From Candidatus Omnitrophota bacterium (GTDB lineage: Bacteria > Omnitrophota > Gorgyraeia > Zapsychrales > Zapsychraceae): a stretch of DNA of 64,000 nucleotides. Below are positions 7,791 to 23,733 of this stretch, piece after piece. The stretch covers positions 72,171-136,170 of the forward strand of contig JACKFK010000008.1 of the NCBI GenBank assembly GCA_020632515.1, given 5' to 3'. Position 1 is the stretch's first letter. Every line of letters starts with the position of its first letter. Below the pieces are notes generated by a model. It was not told the DNA's origin, did not search any database, and worked only from the letters and a program-made list of their open reading frames with translations. The position numbers and the translations under genes were made by a program.

Positions 7791-7852
7791 ATATTTCTGC
7801 TTGATTGATAGAAGAATTTTGTTATTATATTTCTATAAAAGGAATTGAAACT

Positions 7853-8689
7853 ATGGAAGTAAATATCCTCAATCAATCGCAATATTCAACTCTTCTTCAG
7901 GATATCCGCAGGCTTATTAAAGAAGGAAAAGAGCGGGCAGGGCGAGCCGCAGCCAATGAGTTGGTCAAAACCTATTGGGAGATTGGGCGACGTATTAATA
8001 GGGAACAAATGACGTTTCAAGCCGGTTATGCGGACTCAATTATTGAGGATTTGGCGGATGAGCTTCAAATTGACCGGTGGACATTAAAAAGAACCCTTCT
8101 TTTTTTTAATACTTATCCCGGTGGAGCCCCTAGGGGCTCAAATCTTAACTGGGCCCATTATAGAGAGTTGATAACCATTAATGATGATCAAGAGCGGCAA
8201 TGGTATGAGCGCCATGCACTTAAGCAACGTTTAACCAGAGATCAGCTTGTGAAGGCGATCAAAAAGAATGTTTATCAAGAGAAAACCCTCCTAAATAATT
8301 CAAATTTAATAAAATCTGATAAAATTATAAGACCTACGGAAGCAACGTATGTTTATCGGGCTTATGTGGTTCGGGTTATTAGTGCTGATCGGCTGCTTTT
8401 AAGGCTTGATTTAGGATTCCAAGTCTTGAAAGAACAAAGGATTCGTTTGGCCGATATTGAAGCGCCGGCAATGGATGATCCTAAAGGCCGCGAAGCTTAT
8501 GAGTATGTGTTAGGCAAATTAGTCCAATCACCAATGGTGGTTGTAAAAACAAGCAAGATTGATATTTATGGAAGATATTTAGCGTATCTTTTTTATTCAA
8601 CTAAGAAAATGCCGTTGGATATGGTCTTTGAAAAAGGGCAGTTTTTGAATCAGGAAATGGTAGATAACGGATTAGCCCATTTGGCGTAA
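7853..8689 (+). CDS. DUF1016 (YhcG) N-terminal domain fused to a staphylococcal-nuclease (SNase/thermonuclease)-like domain
   Basis: The N-terminal half matches the YhcG pattern (ELVKTYWEIGRRI ... NLNWAHYRELI ... ERQWYERHA). The C-terminal half matches the SNase fold (VVRVISADR..IRLADIEAPA..GREAYEYV..DIYGRYLAYLFY..NGLAHLA). ATG at 7853 is preferred over the in-frame TTG at 7805. Confidence 0.75.
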   Translation: MEVNILNQSQYSTLLQDIRRLIKEGKERAGRAAANELVKTYWEIGRRINREQMTFQAGYADSIIEDLADELQIDRWTLKRTLLFFNTYPGGAPRGSNLNWAHYRELITINDDQERQWYERHALKQRLTRDQLVKAIKKNVYQEKTLLNNSNLIKSDKIIRPTEATYVYRAYVVRVISADRLLLRLDLGFQVLKEQRIRLADIEAPAMDDPKGREAYEYVLGKLVQSPMVVVKTSKIDIYGRYLAYLFYSTKKMPLDMVFEKGQFLNQEMVDNGLAHLA

Positions 8690-18713: not shown

Positions 18714-20165
18714 ATGAGAAAGTTTCTACTGTTAGCAGTATTGATGGTAGCCGTTACGGCAGTGCCAGCATCTGCTAGTGTTCAAAACATCAAAATCAGC
18801 GGAAGTATTGACAATACTTTCATCCACAGAAACAATTTTGATTTTGGATTATCTACAAGAGGTGATTCAATTCAAAATCTTTTCGTCACGCAAACAACTT
18901 TGCAAGTGGATGCTGATTTAACAGAAAATGTTTCAGCTACGGTTGGTCTTATTAATGAAAGAGACTGGCGAGCTGATGCAGGTGCGCCAACAGAAGGTGA
19001 TTCTAATGTGGATCTTTATCTGGCTTATGTCACATTAAGAGAAATGTTATATTCACCAATGACTGTTGTTGTTGGTCGTCAACTTTTTAGCTATGGAAAT
19101 AGCTTAATTGTTGATGCTACAGGTACGAACAATTTATCACCAACGGATTCAGCTTTAGTTGGCGTTGCTAAAGACTTAACAAAGCAAACAAGCCAAGATG
19201 CAATCCGTTTAATTTTTGATTATAATCCTCTAACTGTAGAGTTATTGTATTCAAAAATTAATCCTAACACAGGCGCTGCAGCAGCTGAAGACAAAGATGA
19301 TCATGACTTATATGGTATTAATACAACATATGAATTAGGTGATGATCTTAACACAGTTGTCGAAGCTTACTTCTTTGCCAGCTACAATAAAGTAACAGAA
19401 GGTAATGCTACTGGACCAGCTGTTGGTAAAGTTGACACCATTTATACTCCTGGTGTTCGCGCAAGTGTGAATATTCTTGAAGGGTTAAATCTTCAAGCCG
19501 AATTCGCGCATCAAAGTGGTACAAAGGCAAATTCAGGTACTGCTGGAGACCAGCAAAGCAGAAATGCGAATGCGGCTCAGTTTATAGCGAATTATTCTTT
19601 ACCGGATTCAATTCTGCCACAAGCAGTTGCAGAAATGGAACCTGTTGCTAATTATACGTTCACTTATGTTTCAGGTGATCATGATAAAAATGCAGTTGAT
19701 GGGAGTGCAACAAAAATATCTCCTGAAAACTACACAGCTTGGGATCCTTTATATGAAGCCCAAGGAGCAGGAACAATCTACAATTCATTATTTGACTTAA
19801 CAAACTTGTTTATCCATTCCGTTTCTCTACAAGTTAAACCAATGGAAGACATTACTACTAAATTAAGCTGGCATGGACTTTGGTTAGACAAAGAAGTTCC
19901 TGGGGCAATAGGAACAACAGCTTATAGTTTGTTACGAAATCCAACAACAACTGCTGGTCTTACTGGTGGTTTTCAATCAGGTATTTCTCTTGAAGGTGGA
20001 GAGAGTTATCTTGGATACGAAGTTGATTGGGAAACTACTTATGATTACACAGAAGATGTTCAGTTCGGTGTTAATCTAGGTGTTTTTAATCCAGGCGATG
20101 TGTTTACTGGAACCAATAGCGATGCAGCGACACAAGCCATCGTTCATGGAAATGTAATCTTCTAA
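18714..20165 (+). CDS. outer-membrane beta-barrel porin-like protein
   Basis: Strong SD (GGAGGA), signal peptide MRKFLLLAVLMVAVTAVPASA, alternating beta-strand-like composition rich in G/T/N/Y, and a C-terminal ...VHGNVIF ending in Phe as in OMPs. Confidence 0.7.
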   Translation: MRKFLLLAVLMVAVTAVPASASVQNIKISGSIDNTFIHRNNFDFGLSTRGDSIQNLFVTQTTLQVDADLTENVSATVGLINERDWRADAGAPTEGDSNVDLYLAYVTLREMLYSPMTVVVGRQLFSYGNSLIVDATGTNNLSPTDSALVGVAKDLTKQTSQDAIRLIFDYNPLTVELLYSKINPNTGAAAAEDKDDHDLYGINTTYELGDDLNTVVEAYFFASYNKVTEGNATGPAVGKVDTIYTPGVRASVNILEGLNLQAEFAHQSGTKANSGTAGDQQSRNANAAQFIANYSLPDSILPQAVAEMEPVANYTFTYVSGDHDKNAVDGSATKISPENYTAWDPLYEAQGAGTIYNSLFDLTNLFIHSVSLQVKPMEDITTKLSWHGLWLDKEVPGAIGTTAYSLLRNPTTTAGLTGGFQSGISLEGGESYLGYEVDWETTYDYTEDVQFGVNLGVFNPGDVFTGTNSDAATQAIVHGNVIF

Positions 20166-20196
20166 ACATTAGAAGGTTGATATAGTAATACTGTTA

Positions 20197-20229
20197 GCCC
20201 CCTGCATATTTTATGCAGGGGGCTTTTTA
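20197..20229 (+). terminator. Rho-independent terminator after the porin gene
   Basis: GCCCCCTGCATA / TATGCAGGGGGC 12-bp stem with a 3-nt loop, followed by TTTTT. Confidence 0.85.
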
Positions 20230-20425: not shown

Positions 20426-21001
20426 ATGACACGCGACGATATCTACGATCATTTAGCTCAAGTTTATTTGGGTAAACGTAAAAAAAGTGATACCAGAAAA
20501 AAGAAACAATATAATACCTGGTTGGTAATTAATATTGTTATTACTGTTATGATTTTCTTTTCAGCTTTTTATGGCTTGACTGCTTCCTTGACGAGAAAAG
20601 GTTCGACACTTCAAGATAATATTATTTATGCGCTTCATAATGGTTCGATTCGAATGGAATATAATTTTAGAGATTCATATACACCAACCCAATCGTTTGT
20701 TCTAGCCATTCCCGATATTAATGCACAGAAATATAAGAAGATTGAGTTTTCTATTCGAAGCAAAGAAGAAGGTTCTCCAGGAAATGTTAAGGTTGAATTC
20801 AAGAATAATAAAAATGAAATCGCTTTTTATTATATTCAAGACGTGGGATTGGAATGGCGAAAATATAGTATCCCTTTAAATGAATTCAAGAATATTACGG
20901 ACTGGTCGCAGATGAATGATATTTCTTTTATATTAGAGTCGTGGAATGTCAAACAAAAAAAAGGTGTTATTTTAATTGATGACGTTCACTTTTCAGGGTA
21001 A
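20426..21001 (+). CDS. hypothetical single-pass membrane protein with extracytoplasmic beta-sandwich (CBM-like) domain
   Basis: Basic N-terminus, one TM helix (WLVINIVITVMIFFSAFYGL), then about 130 aa of beta-rich sequence ending ...GVILIDDVHFSG, reminiscent of carbohydrate-binding/CIA30-type sandwiches. The family is not certain. Confidence 0.5.
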   Translation: MTRDDIYDHLAQVYLGKRKKSDTRKKKQYNTWLVINIVITVMIFFSAFYGLTASLTRKGSTLQDNIIYALHNGSIRMEYNFRDSYTPTQSFVLAIPDINAQKYKKIEFSIRSKEEGSPGNVKVEFKNNKNEIAFYYIQDVGLEWRKYSIPLNEFKNITDWSQMNDISFILESWNVKQKKGVILIDDVHFSG

Positions 21002-21073
21002 AACAATTAATAAATTAAATTCAATCATTTTTATAACTTTACAAAAATATCTATAACAAGGGGGCAAATGTAA

Positions 21074-22444
21074 ATGAAAATCATATCAATCGCTAATCAA
21101 AAAGGTGGATGTGGAAAAACAACGACCGCAATAAATTTAGCATCAGCATTAAGTTTAAACGGTAAACGTGTTTTACTTTTTGATTTAGATCCGCAAGCGC
21201 ATGCCTCATTAGGATTAGATATTGAAAGCCAGGATAGCATTTATAATGTCATTTCCAGATTAACTCCGAGAAAATTGAAATTAGAAAATATTATTAAGAA
21301 GGTTGAGAATTCATTTGATATCGTTCCTTCTAATATTCTAGTAGGAACATTAGAGCAAGAACTTTCCGACGAGATTGGTCGGGAGTTAAAGTTAATGGAA
21401 GTCATTAAACCTATACGTGATCAATATGACTATGTTCTTATTGATTGTCCGCCAAGTTTAGGGATTTTGACAATTAATGCTATTCGTGTTAGTGAGCAAT
21501 TAATTATCCCTGTTGAGACAAGCCGTTTTTCTATGCAGGGGGTAGAGCATTTAATGGATATCGTGCATCTTGTGAAGGAACGGTTAAATCATTCAGTGGA
21601 TTGCCGTATTTTGGTAACTATGTTTGATTCGAGGTTGCGACATTCTTTTGCGATGTTATCTACTTTTAAAGAAAGATTTAATAAGTTATTGTTTGATACA
21701 ATTGTGCATATCAATGTCAAATTAAAAGAGTCTGCGGTAATGGGAAAGCCAGTAGCGTTTTATGATAAATATTGCCGAGGATCAAAAGATTATTATACTT
21801 TAGCTAAAGAATTAATTTTCGAAGATAAACAAACAGGTGCTATTGATGAGGTTAAGCAACAAGTTAAGAAACAGCCTGAAATTAAGGTAGAAAAAATAAA
21901 AGAAAAGAAGGAAAAAATCGAAGAGCCTGTTGTTGCTAAAGAACCTGAACTTGAGAAAACTTCTTGGAAAAATCGATTGGAAGAAGAAATTCTTGATGTT
22001 CAAGAAGATGCGCAGGAAATAAAACTGGAATCAAAATCTGACGCAAAAGAACAAGTAAAAGAAGAAGTGGTTGACGAAGTTGAGCAAGAAGAAACTGCTG
22101 CTGAAGAACAAAAACCGGTAGAGGCAACTTTTCAACCGTTGTCATCACGAATGAAAGAATTGGTTCGTGAAGAAGCAAAAGACTTCTTCCGTGCTAAATT
22201 TTCTATCGAAGCGCCAGGAGCGAAATCTGTTTATGTCACGGGTAGTTTTAATGATTGGTCTTTGGATGATAATTGCCGTCTGAAAAATAAGGGTGATGGT
22301 AATTGGGAAACTGAGATCGATCTTAAACCTGGTGTATATAAATATCAGTTTATCGTCGATGGAGTTTGGAAAGAAGATCCAAAAAATCCGCAAAAAGAAC
22401 GAAATTCTTTTGGTGACATCAATTCCCTCATTGAGGTAAAATGA
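21074..22444 (+). CDS. ParA/MinD-family ATPase fused via an E/K-rich linker to an AMPK-beta/CBM48-like glycogen-binding domain
   Basis: Deviant Walker A NQKGGCGKTTTAINLA, DLDPQAHAS, Walker B YVLIDCPPSLG. Low-complexity linker at residues ~255-365. The C-terminus VYVTGSFNDWS..GNWETEIDLKPGVYKYQFIVDGVWKEDPKNP..GDINSLIEV aligns with the AMPK beta CBM. Confidence 0.85.
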   Translation: MKIISIANQKGGCGKTTTAINLASALSLNGKRVLLFDLDPQAHASLGLDIESQDSIYNVISRLTPRKLKLENIIKKVENSFDIVPSNILVGTLEQELSDEIGRELKLMEVIKPIRDQYDYVLIDCPPSLGILTINAIRVSEQLIIPVETSRFSMQGVEHLMDIVHLVKERLNHSVDCRILVTMFDSRLRHSFAMLSTFKERFNKLLFDTIVHINVKLKESAVMGKPVAFYDKYCRGSKDYYTLAKELIFEDKQTGAIDEVKQQVKKQPEIKVEKIKEKKEKIEEPVVAKEPELEKTSWKNRLEEEILDVQEDAQEIKLESKSDAKEQVKEEVVDEVEQEETAAEEQKPVEATFQPLSSRMKELVREEAKDFFRAKFSIEAPGAKSVYVTGSFNDWSLDDNCRLKNKGDGNWETEIDLKPGVYKYQFIVDGVWKEDPKNPQKERNSFGDINSLIEVK

Positions 22445-22767
22445 TGAACGCCTCCAGTGAGGATAGTGATATTATCCTCGATGGGAAAATATATGCGGTA
22501 ATCGCATATTTATCTTTCTTCTGTTTTATTCCTTTAATATTTAAACGCGATAATCCATTTGTTTTGTTTCATGGTAAACAAGGACTAGTGCTCTTTCTTG
22601 GGCAGTTAGTTTTTTGTGTTTTTGGTATTGTCTTCGGGCTCGGTTTTATCAAATTTGGTTTTTTTGTGTTAGGTGTATTGGCACTATTTGGGATTTTTTC
22701 TGCGCTAAATGGAAAATATAGCCCGATTATTATAATTTCAGAGCTTACCAAGCAGATTCATCTTTAA
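22441..22767 (+). CDS. DUF4870-like small membrane protein
   Basis: AVIAYLSFFCFIPLIFKRDNPFVLFHGKQGLVLFLGQLV pattern with 3 predicted TM helices. Its start overlaps the parA-like stop (ATGA). Confidence 0.6.
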   Translation: MMNASSEDSDIILDGKIYAVIAYLSFFCFIPLIFKRDNPFVLFHGKQGLVLFLGQLVFCVFGIVFGLGFIKFGFFVLGVLALFGIFSALNGKYSPIIIISELTKQIHL

Positions 22768-23304
22768 GTGATTATGTCCATTCTTGATCAAATTCTTAAT
22801 GGTTTTAAGGAGATTTTTAAAGGAAAGCAGCGTCGGAAGAAATCTCGTAAGAAAAAAAAGGCGTCTACAGCTAAAAATGTTTCTAGAAGAGGTAATCCAA
22901 AACCAAAGGGAATAAAAAGTACAAAGAAATCAGTTGCTGTTAAAAAGAAAAAGAAGACAGCGGAACCTGCGCGAAAGAAGAATGTTAAAGCTAAGAGTCC
23001 TGTTAAAAAGAAAAAAACTGCTTTAAAAAACATTTCAAGTCAATCAAAACATGAGCAGATTGTTGGGGAGATAACACACTATTTTTCTAAAATTCAGGTT
23101 GTGGTTATTAAGATTACAAAAGGCGGCATAAAGGTTGGCGATAAGTTGTTAATTAAAGGCGCCCGGAGTGCATTTGTGCAAAAAATTAGCTCTTTGCAGA
23201 TAGAATCAGTTGATGTAAAATCGGCAAAGTCAGGGCAAATAGTTGGAATGAAGGTCAATAATATTGCTTATCCGGGAGATAATGTGTATTTATTAAAGAA
23301 ATGA
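22768..23304 (+). CDS. Lys-rich disordered N-terminal region + EF-Tu domain-2-like beta-barrel protein
   Basis: Residues ~17-95 are about half Lys/Arg (KQRRKKSRKKKK..VKKKKKT..VKKKKT). The C-terminal ~85 aa (GEITHYFSKIQVVVIKIT.GGIKVGDKLLIKG....IESVDVKSAKSGQIVGMKV) resembles translation-factor domain II barrels. Start is GTG 22768 or ATG 22774. Confidence 0.6.
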   Translation: MIMSILDQILNGFKEIFKGKQRRKKSRKKKKASTAKNVSRRGNPKPKGIKSTKKSVAVKKKKKTAEPARKKNVKAKSPVKKKKTALKNISSQSKHEQIVGEITHYFSKIQVVVIKITKGGIKVGDKLLIKGARSAFVQKISSLQIESVDVKSAKSGQIVGMKVNNIAYPGDNVYLLKK

Positions 23305-23316
23305 GAATGGTTATAT

Positions 23317-23733
23317 ATGAATAAAGAATTTAATGATAATGAACTGAATTTAATCCGTCGATATTTGGTGTGGTGTTATAAAACGACAAAAGAGGATTTG
23401 GATAGAATTGATCGGTATTTTACTCAATTTACTGTTGATTCTCATTTGTTGGAATCTTTAAAAAAAGAAAAAGTGTTTAAATCAGATATGAAGTATAAAG
23501 ATGCGGTGAAGCAATTTGAACAATATATGCATGAGAAAATTGATAAAGCTAGGCAAAAGAAGTTTGTAGATAATAAGGAAGAACTAAATACAGAGTATGT
23601 TTATTTGCAAAACCGAATGGTGGCGATTGAGAATACGATTAGTAAATTATTGGGAGAGGAAATGTTAAAAGAGATTGTGCGATTATATGAAGAAGAAATG
23701 ACAGTTAGAATTTTACAGGCGAGGGAACATTGA
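23317..23733 (+). CDS. hypothetical helical protein
   Basis: 138-aa ORF beginning 12 nt after the previous stop. Predicted all-helical and charged. No family recognised. Confidence 0.5.
   Translation: MNKEFNDNELNLIRRYLVWCYKTTKEDLDRIDRYFTQFTVDSHLLESLKKEKVFKSDMKYKDAVKQFEQYMHEKIDKARQKKFVDNKEELNTEYVYLQNRMVAIENTISKLLGEEMLKEIVRLYEEEMTVRILQAREH

Follow-up and report, generated by a model that had tools for sequence, protein, structure and literature searches.

ATPases of the ParA/MinD superfamily are a general bacterial means of placing large objects, among them chromosomes, plasmids, carboxysomes and chemoreceptor arrays. In the McdAB, PpfA/TlpT, ParC/ParP and PomXYZ systems a ParA-type ATPase distributes a non-DNA cargo on the nucleoid, assisted by a partner protein whose N-terminal peptide is basic or which contains a disordered region. 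Attachment of a storage polymer to the nucleoid is known from PhaM of Ralstonia eutropha, a nucleoid tether of polyhydroxybutyrate granules through which both daughters inherit them. Glycogen is the most widespread carbon store of bacteria, and to our knowledge no ParA/MinD positioning system serves it. The present analysis concerns a gene, here called ParA-CBM, in a 64-kb stretch of contig JACKFK010000008.1 from a Candidatus Omnitrophota bacterium (the window, 64,000 nucleotides), whose product joins a Soj-type ParA ATPase to a carbohydrate-binding module (CBM) of the type found in the AMPK beta subunit. A first-pass annotation of this DNA had proposed that the fusion positions glycogen granules, that its cargo-binding domain is part of the ATPase itself, where such systems normally use a separate adaptor, and that no ParA system for this cargo had been described. 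The last point agrees with the full-text literature searched on ParA with glycogen or CBM48 and on Omnitrophota with glycogen or ParB, in which neither a ParA system for glycogen nor the ParA-CBM protein is described.

Architecture and distribution of the fusion

The coordinates first given for the gene are exact, and its parts, in window coordinates and amino acids (aa), are the following.

21074..22444, + strand: ParA-CBM gene (open reading frame (ORF) call: 456 aa plus stop)
21074..21823, + strand: Soj-type ParA ATPase domain, residues 1-250 (AAA_31, PDB matches, predicted fold)
21836..22129, + strand: disordered linker rich in Glu, Lys and Ala, residues 255-352 (low predicted local distance difference test score (pLDDT), hypervariable sequence and length)
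22130..22189, + strand: conserved segment ahead of the CBM, residues 353-372, with a short helix at 356-372 (AlphaFold2 (AF2) model; S357, M360 and E367 near-invariant)
22190..22441, + strand: AMPK-beta-type CBM48 beta-sandwich, residues 373-456 (Pfam, PDB and Foldseek matches)

In a protein database comparison the product matches at 100% the NCBI entry 'AAA family ATPase [Candidatus Omnitrophica bacterium]'. The division into a complete ParA/Soj-type ATPase, a low-complexity linker and an AMPK-beta/CBM48-like module, as first read from the translation, is borne out by the profile and structure comparisons that had been suggested for it. Residue conservation was taken from the best 120 matches in a database of 5.8 billion proteins, and that of the ATPase motifs from 55 aligned homologues. 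Pfam AAA_31 matches residues 1-175 with an E value of 1.8e-54 (184.8 bits) and CbiA matches the same half at 9.5e-19 (68 bits), both above their cut-offs. The three ATPase motifs KGGCGKTT, DLDPQ and VLIDCPPSLG are all present. Within the deviant Walker A motif (residues 10-17, nt 21101-21124) K10, G11, G12, G14, K15, T16 and T17 are invariant, as are D37, D39 and Q41 of DLDPQ, which holds the Walker A' catalytic Asp, and D124 of Walker B. The usual Val of the Walker A motif is replaced by a Cys that is itself invariant in the ParA-CBM homologues. Because Lys10, the signature lysine, Lys15, D37/D39 and D124 are invariant, and given the established ParA mechanism, the protein should hydrolyse ATP and assemble into a sandwich dimer.

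The top PDB sequence match of the ATPase is 8ray, 'ParA in complex with ATP' (E 1.5e-50), and the Soj proteins of H. pylori (6iub, E 4e-39) and T. thermophilus (1wcv, E 4.5e-38) also match. The match to McdA (6non) has an E value of 3e-15 and, like that to MinD, is far weaker than those to the Soj entries. When the full-length AF2 model (pLDDT 70.7) was ranked by fold, ParA/Soj came first, with a target-normalised template-modelling (TM) score of ~0.8, E ~1e-18 and 33-37% identity. McdA, FlhG, BcsQ and MinD followed at E ~1e-12 and 15-25% identity (McdA, E 3e-12; BcsQ, E ~5e-12 with 15-16% identity). The nearest solved relatives are thus chromosomal ParA/Soj proteins and not McdA, MinD, FlhG or BcsQ. 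The ATPase nevertheless stays below the curated NCBIfam thresholds, both for the equivalog ParA_partition (109 bits against a cut-off of 180) and for cellulose_yhjQ (64 bits against 158).

The segment that follows the ATPase behaves as a flexible tether. Its pLDDT in the full-length model is mostly below 50 and its mean column identity is 0.05. Among the 120 homologues it varies from 12 to 114 aa, contains 22% Glu and usually has a negative net charge. The tail beyond it was examined as residues 353-456. AMPK1_CBM matches residues 382-456 with an E value of 2.3e-16 (60.2 bits; gathering threshold 26.8), and CBM_48 is barely over its threshold (23.0 against 22.4 bits). The top solved sequence relatives are the AMPK beta1 and beta2 CBMs, including 1z0n (E 4e-11). 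Behind them come CBMs of pullulanase and neopullulanase as well as LSF1 and SEX4, two starch phosphatases of plants. The region as modelled by AF2 (pLDDT 83.3) superposes in Foldseek on 1z0m, 1z0n, 4yee and 4yef with a target-normalised TM score of ~0.8 and a root-mean-square deviation of 2.0-2.4 A. These AMPK-beta matches, which include cyclodextrin complexes, have 34-36% identity and a probability of 1.00.

For the genomic setting, GTDB species-representative genomes were scanned with a CBM profile, which gave 189 stretches encoding a relative. The best 80 of these, three further loci and the window itself make up a set of 84 loci, with neighbourhoods of +-10 kb. Synteny counts state how many loci have a homologue, out of those whose flanks reach far enough for one to be visible. 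ParA and CBM lie within a single ORF in 83 of the 84 loci, almost all of them labelled Omnitrophota, and the exception (L024) ends at a contig edge. The best 120 database matches (368-474 aa) all carry both domain sets, and every named one is from Omnitrophica or Omnitrophota. This one-ORF architecture excludes an artefact of assembly or gene fusion, so that the fusion is real and not a merger of two separate genes.

A filter-free search with the CBM alone among 1.84 billion cluster representatives returned a handful of fusion representatives, all of the ParA-CBM family, which excludes a fusion that is widespread across phyla. The remaining top matches carry the module in 2-18 tandem copies and derive from Hydrogenedentota, Elusimicrobia, Krumholzibacteriia and Epulopiscium. 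Several go by the name 'glycogen-binding domain-containing protein', an alpha-amylase catalytic domain is present in one, and by a crude check about two-thirds have signal-peptide-like N-termini. ParA-CBM has no signal peptide and its Walker A motif begins at residue 10; therefore any bound glucan would be cytoplasmic. Since fusions are confined to this family and the other relatives of the CBM are tandem arrays, mostly signal-peptide-like, the compared sequences indicate a single, old, phylum-restricted invention that put a glucan-binding module into the cytoplasm. Nearly every relative sampled in Omnitrophota, an uncultured phylum, retains the fusion.

Some individual cases deserve mention. 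A hypothetical protein of 1812 aa from Candidatus Epulonipiscium viviparus (P0121) has 18 separate stretches that match the query CBM, and proteins of ~480 aa with four CBM copies, mostly with signal-peptide-like N-termini, occur in many other bacteria. A 3.8-kb contig binned as Lysobacterales (L005, JBLINE010000142.1) carries the full module of a 191-aa protein, ParA-CBM and a 178-aa protein, and its label is probably a mis-binning. Many loci titled 'uncultured Planctomycetales', from binchicken metagenome-assembled genomes (MAGs), also carry the whole module; these carriers are presumably Omnitrophota. In the MAG nzgw314 the gene is found on two separate contigs, L007 and L040, which could be paralogues or a strain mixture.

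The closeness to Soj invites the reading that the protein is a plain chromosomal ParA whose ParB is encoded elsewhere, the CBM being an accessory decoration. The identity of the closest solved relatives would fit, and no second ParA was found within +-10 kb at any locus. Chromosomal parA, however, normally lies within a parAB operon, and here no ParB box II motif was present among the ORFs of 83 loci, nor a ParB domain among the annotated neighbours in two homologous loci. The low ParA_partition score and a set of fixed operon partners unrelated to ParB also speak against it, and we consider this reading very improbable. On sequence grounds ParA-CBM can be classed as a member of the ParA/MinD superfamily that is closest to Soj, in which the adjacent parB and the equivalog score of a ParABS system are absent.

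The sugar site and a possible link between glycogen and nucleoid

The tail had been described as agreeing position for position with the sugar contacts of AMPK beta. The motifs GSFNDW, VDGVWKEDP and DINSLIEV are all present in the translation, and for two Trp and one Asn the description holds. W395, W432 and N450 stand at the positions of W100, W133 and N150 of rat AMPK beta1 in 120/120 homologues each; in 584 related bacterial CBM domains the same columns contain W in 97%, W in 84% and N in 64%. For the Lys it does not hold, as the residue is off by two: in the ungapped HMMER alignment KYQF pairs with QYKF, which places Q425 at rat K126 and K423 at i-2. The position of rat L146 is taken by F446, conserved at 98% among the 120 homologues. 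Three of the five AMPK sugar contacts are thus invariant, a fourth is changed from Leu to Phe and the fifth from Lys to Gln. By hidden Markov model and fold the tail is a member of AMPK1_CBM/CBM48, with one canonical sugar contact out of five missing. K423 is conserved at 97% in the ParA-CBM family, while related domains carry E, Q or L there. Lying on the same strand, it may offset the loss of the K126 equivalent. K423 and Q425 share one face of a strand and both are fixed, a pattern more consistent with a sugar site that was remodelled and kept than with one in decay. The whole CBM is unusually conserved, with a mean identity of 0.80. C401, also in the CBM, is 97% conserved.

We tentatively favour, at somewhat less than even confidence, a role of ParA-CBM as an ATP-switched tether or positioner that links glycogen to the nucleoid. 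The functional unit would be a nucleoid-binding dimer of the Soj type, each subunit of which bears an alpha-glucan-binding CBM48 on a flexible tether. In the ATP form the sandwich dimer would grip non-specific DNA through a basic patch, and each of its two CBMs, at the end of a tether 12-114 residues long, would bind the surface of glycogen particles, with dimerisation doubling the valency. Glycogen would in this way be held and spread over the nucleoid, not excluded to the pole, and be inherited with the chromosomes. Hydrolysis of ATP would free the tether, with a co-operonic partner as the probable trigger. In E. coli glycogen condensates gather at the old pole and displace the nucleoid, with asymmetric division and inheritance (Thappeta et al.).

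The proposed tether draws on the glucan-binding relatives of the CBM, on the invariant Trp, Trp and Asn, on the DNA-binding residues that are kept and on the presence of glycogen synthesis in the MAGs. Most described Omnitrophota MAGs encode glycogen synthesis, including Zapsychrus exili MAG 3300035698_1555, a contig of which (L045) carries the fusion. As to DNA binding, the study of H. pylori Soj (HpSoj) gives R189, K201, R215 and R218 as the basic patch of B. subtilis Soj (BsSoj) and reports that mutagenesis showed R189 and R218 to be needed for nucleoid binding. In an alignment with BsSoj (40% identity) these residues correspond to R187, K199, I213 and K216, respectively. R187 and K216, the equivalents of the two needed residues, are invariant among the aligned homologues. 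Non-specific DNA binding by the ATPase is therefore likely, though not secure.

Several observations weigh against a tether of this kind, and the change at K126 is the main caveat where glucan binding is concerned. This column is Gln in 119/120 ParA-CBM homologues; in the 584 related bacterial domains it is Lys in 89% and Gln in 2%. The K126Q substitution abolished glycogen binding by the isolated AMPK beta1 CBM (review PMC6274970). With Gln at a position where this substitution kills AMPK binding, glucan binding by the tail, as judged from its residues, is probable but not secure. On the DNA side Ile takes the place of one of the four basic-patch residues of BsSoj, and the lysines of HpSoj are matched in position at one of four (K230 only). 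The operon genes on both sides of ParA-CBM encode membrane proteins, which a pure tether between nucleoid and glycogen would not need. Bacterial glycogen particles are usually numerous, and active partitioning is perhaps unnecessary. A further point is the lack of linked glg genes, whose co-occurrence with the fusion had been put forward as a check. No glgA or glgC motifs were found among the ORFs of 83 loci (+-10 kb), which yielded one GlgP-like ORF, and there is no glg gene among the scanned window ORFs or in the two annotated homologous loci. The granule positioning suggested by the first-pass annotation thus has partial support, from the invariant residues, the glucan-binding relatives, the DNA-binding residues and the glycogen synthesis of the MAGs; it remains an inference and is weakened by the Gln and by the missing linkage.

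The same substitution could mean that the CBM-like domain has been repurposed for a protein or another ligand, in which case the ParA would position or regulate a membrane complex of the 191-aa and 108-aa neighbours over the nucleoid. Such a change of ligand would agree with the presence of Gln at the K126 position in 99% of the family, given the effect of K126Q on AMPK, and with the high conservation of the whole module. It would also agree with the position of the gene, which is coupled to one membrane protein and preceded by another that has an invariant cytoplasmic peptide. However, the two Trp and the Asn at AMPK sugar-contact positions are invariant, K423 and Q425 are themselves conserved at 97-99%, which is what a sugar site still in use would show, and the nearest relatives of the domain are glucan-binding arrays. 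A repurposed module therefore seems decidedly unlikely, and the proposed glycogen tether is retained in what follows.

The operon and its candidate partners

The genes around ParA-CBM are listed here in order.

18714..20165, + strand: Alginate_exp-family outer-membrane beta-barrel (Pfam E 2.5e-13; 63/64 loci)
20196-20224: terminator-like hairpin after the barrel gene, 13-bp, GC-rich and strong
20426..21001, + strand: 191-aa bitopic membrane protein of an orphan family, upstream of ParA-CBM
22441..22767, + strand: 108-aa small polytopic membrane protein, DUF4870/MamF_MmsF-like, downstream of ParA-CBM
22768..23304, + strand: 178-aa protein with a Lys-rich disordered N-terminal region and an EF-Tu-domain-2-like beta-barrel
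23317..23733, + strand: 138-aa helical orphan (41/76 loci; operon membership uncertain)

The operon consists of the genes for the 191-aa protein, ParA-CBM, the 108-aa protein and the 178-aa protein, possibly with that for the 138-aa protein. Its limits are set by synteny, by the overlap of the 108-aa gene and by the absence of a comparable hairpin within 20426-23733. The order of the four genes is kept in ~87-100% of loci. A homologue of the 191-aa protein was found at 77 other loci, always on the same strand, and 74 were counted with enough flank, which is effectively all. The 108-aa protein has a homologue in 69/80 loci with a median offset of -7 nt, and in the window its start overlaps the stop codon of ParA-CBM, which indicates translational coupling. 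For the 178-aa protein the count is 70/79. The barrel gene is a syntenic neighbour but probably belongs to a separate transcript, because the strong hairpin intervenes.

The 191-aa family comprises 708 clusters. Among the 120 members listed there is no Pfam domain, every named one is a 'hypothetical protein' of Omnitrophica or Omnitrophota, and no outgroup that pairs the protein with a plain ParA was found. From its cytoplasmic N-terminus, MTRD(D/E)IYDHLAQVYLGKRK, the chain continues through a basic stretch and a single transmembrane helix to a beta-sandwich outside the cytoplasm. This outer domain bears a weak likeness to CBM11, CIA30 and MAM, with a weak CBM_11 match in 13/38 members, and against the PDB the profile of the family gave marginal matches only (CBM11 at 0.08). 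Conservation is concentrated in the first 18 residues, where mean identity is 0.93 against 0.62 for the outer beta-sandwich and where G16 and K17 are invariant.

The peptide on the cytoplasmic side may indicate what the protein does. The N-terminus of H. pylori ParB (HpParB), MAKNKVLGRG, contains an LG(R/K)G motif that binds ParA and stimulates its ATPase, and L7 and R9 are conserved in it. H. pylori ParA (HpParA) clamps this N-terminal peptide with its loop L23, said to show little conservation among ParAs. The corresponding segment of ParA-CBM, residues 42-56 (...SLGLDIESQDS), is acidic and 95% conserved. The L-G-K core of the 191-aa protein resembles the ParB motif. Because both this peptide and the loop are strongly conserved, the 191-aa membrane protein is a candidate partner of the ATPase, and the case for it, made from sequence features, is circumstantial but coherent. 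In the proposed mechanism its cytoplasmic N-terminal peptide (...VYLGKRK) would be the best candidate for the activator that triggers ATP hydrolysis, with MTRDEIYDHLAQVYLGKRKK, including K17, as the candidate stimulating sequence. The premise that a cargo domain in cis does away with a separate adaptor is therefore doubtful. The gene lies inside a conserved operon, the first product of which starts with an invariant, ParB-like peptide, so that a separate partner is probable.

The Lys-rich 178-aa protein would be the alternative activator. Its basic region has a net charge of +17 to +64 in all homologues but one, GTP_EFTU_D2 matches 27/34 members of the family, and its profile gave marginal matches only against the PDB (an eEFSec domain at 0.75). 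A role as a nucleoid-associated protein is conceivable for it, as is one as another possible partner of the ATPase. The acidic ParA linker and this basic region co-vary (Spearman -0.34, p 0.004); the relation is weak, uncorrected for phylogeny and includes near-duplicate genomes, and it is not relied on. The 138-aa protein has no Pfam match and contains the conserved motif LIRRYLxWCYKTTKE.

The membrane proteins and the barrel allow a different arrangement, in which the ATPase, like BcsQ, localises a trans-envelope apparatus composed of a tetratricopeptide repeat (TPR) protein, the Alginate_exp barrel and the CBM11-like membrane protein, while the CBM holds a nascent cytoplasmic alpha-glucan. 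Pfam CBP_BcsQ does match the ATPase half (E 5e-12), the barrel is present in nearly all loci that could show it, the TPR protein is syntenic in 32/52 loci, and the outer domain of the 191-aa protein has its weak resemblance to CBM11. The BcsQ match is, however, generic to ParA/MinD proteins, and in fold Soj is far closer than BcsQ. The terminator-like hairpin parts the barrel gene from the operon, and neither the two annotated homologous loci nor the scanned window genes near the operon contain a glycosyltransferase, synthase, exporter or bcs gene. We consider an apparatus of this type improbable, though not to the same degree as a plain chromosomal ParA.

The flanking housekeeping genes, including those for sigma-70, PNPase and FtsK, are syntenic in 45-67% of loci, with FtsK ~5 kb downstream in about half. 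Together with the Soj-type ATPase and with an AMPK-beta-type module, whose documented role is glycogen sensing, the proximity of FtsK would suit a regulator in which the CBM reports the glycogen status of the cell. Binding to or sequestration on glycogen would then alter the amount of ATPase available on the nucleoid and couple segregation, the choice of the division site or replication to carbon reserves. Against such a sensor, the operon contains no ParB, DnaA or division gene, and its conserved partners are membrane proteins to which no function has been assigned. The substitution at K126 counts here too. This explanation is unlikely, but of the alternatives to a glycogen tether it deserves the most attention.

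The window itself is ordinary chromosomal DNA of a low-GC bacterium (32-42% GC). GC skew is positive in all 2-kb bins from 1 to 64000 (0.13-0.28), and of the 63 ORFs that reach 100 aa ~60 are on the + strand. Given the uniform skew and the strand bias, the window lies within one replichore and its genes are extremely co-oriented with replication. An ORF at 7805-8689 joins a DUF1016 N-terminal domain to a staphylococcal-nuclease domain.

Comparison with known systems

If the proposed glycogen tether and the membrane-bound activator are taken together, ParA-CBM would be the first machine of the ParA/MinD family for a polysaccharide storage body. It would combine a cargo domain in cis with a membrane-anchored, ParB-like LGK activator in a three-way system of nucleoid, glycogen and membrane that gives equal inheritance in the ultra-small cells of Omnitrophota. 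This full picture is rather unlikely, more so than the tether by itself. If true, the three-way system would avoid the polar build-up of glycogen and the asymmetric division seen in E. coli. A ParA with a built-in glycogen module would be a natural experiment on the location and inheritance of a storage polymer, and the repertoire of ParA proteins would gain cis cargo binding and possibly a membrane-anchored activator, in a compact, testable set of two to four genes from a phylum that is uncultured. The AMPK type of the domain also makes it possible that glycogen sensing feeds into bacterial chromosome or division control.

Compared with chromosomal ParA/Soj (1wcv/2bek, 6iub/8jmj, 8ray), ParA-CBM has the same fold, motifs and size and boundaries of the ATPase domain, and equivalents of the DNA-binding Arg and Lys residues are present (R187, K199, K216). 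It differs from them in the added linker and C-terminal CBM48, in the Cys that replaces Val in Walker A, in the lack of an adjacent parB in 83 loci and in having membrane proteins as operon partners. With the AMPK beta CBM (1z0m, 1z0n, 4yee, 4yef) it shares the beta-sandwich, about one-third of its residues and the equivalents of W100, W133 and N150. Unlike that domain it has KYQ for QYK and a preceding conserved helix, and it is mounted on an ATPase rather than a kinase scaffold.

Positioning of the McdAB type is similar in concept, and the 191-aa and 178-aa proteins are the candidate partners here. In those systems a separate adaptor contacts the cargo, whereas in ParA-CBM the putative cargo domain is in cis and the proposed cargo is a polysaccharide. 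PhaM resembles the proposed tether in that a storage-polymer granule is attached to the nucleoid, but PhaM has an unrelated sequence and no ATPase function, and the tether suggested here would be nucleotide-switched. MinD and FlhG, like ParA-CBM, have a C-terminal surface-binding element of their own, in their case a membrane-targeting sequence, and dimerisation raises its avidity. The element of ParA-CBM is a folded CBM of 85 aa on a long linker instead of an amphipathic helix, and it is carried by an ATPase of the Soj type.

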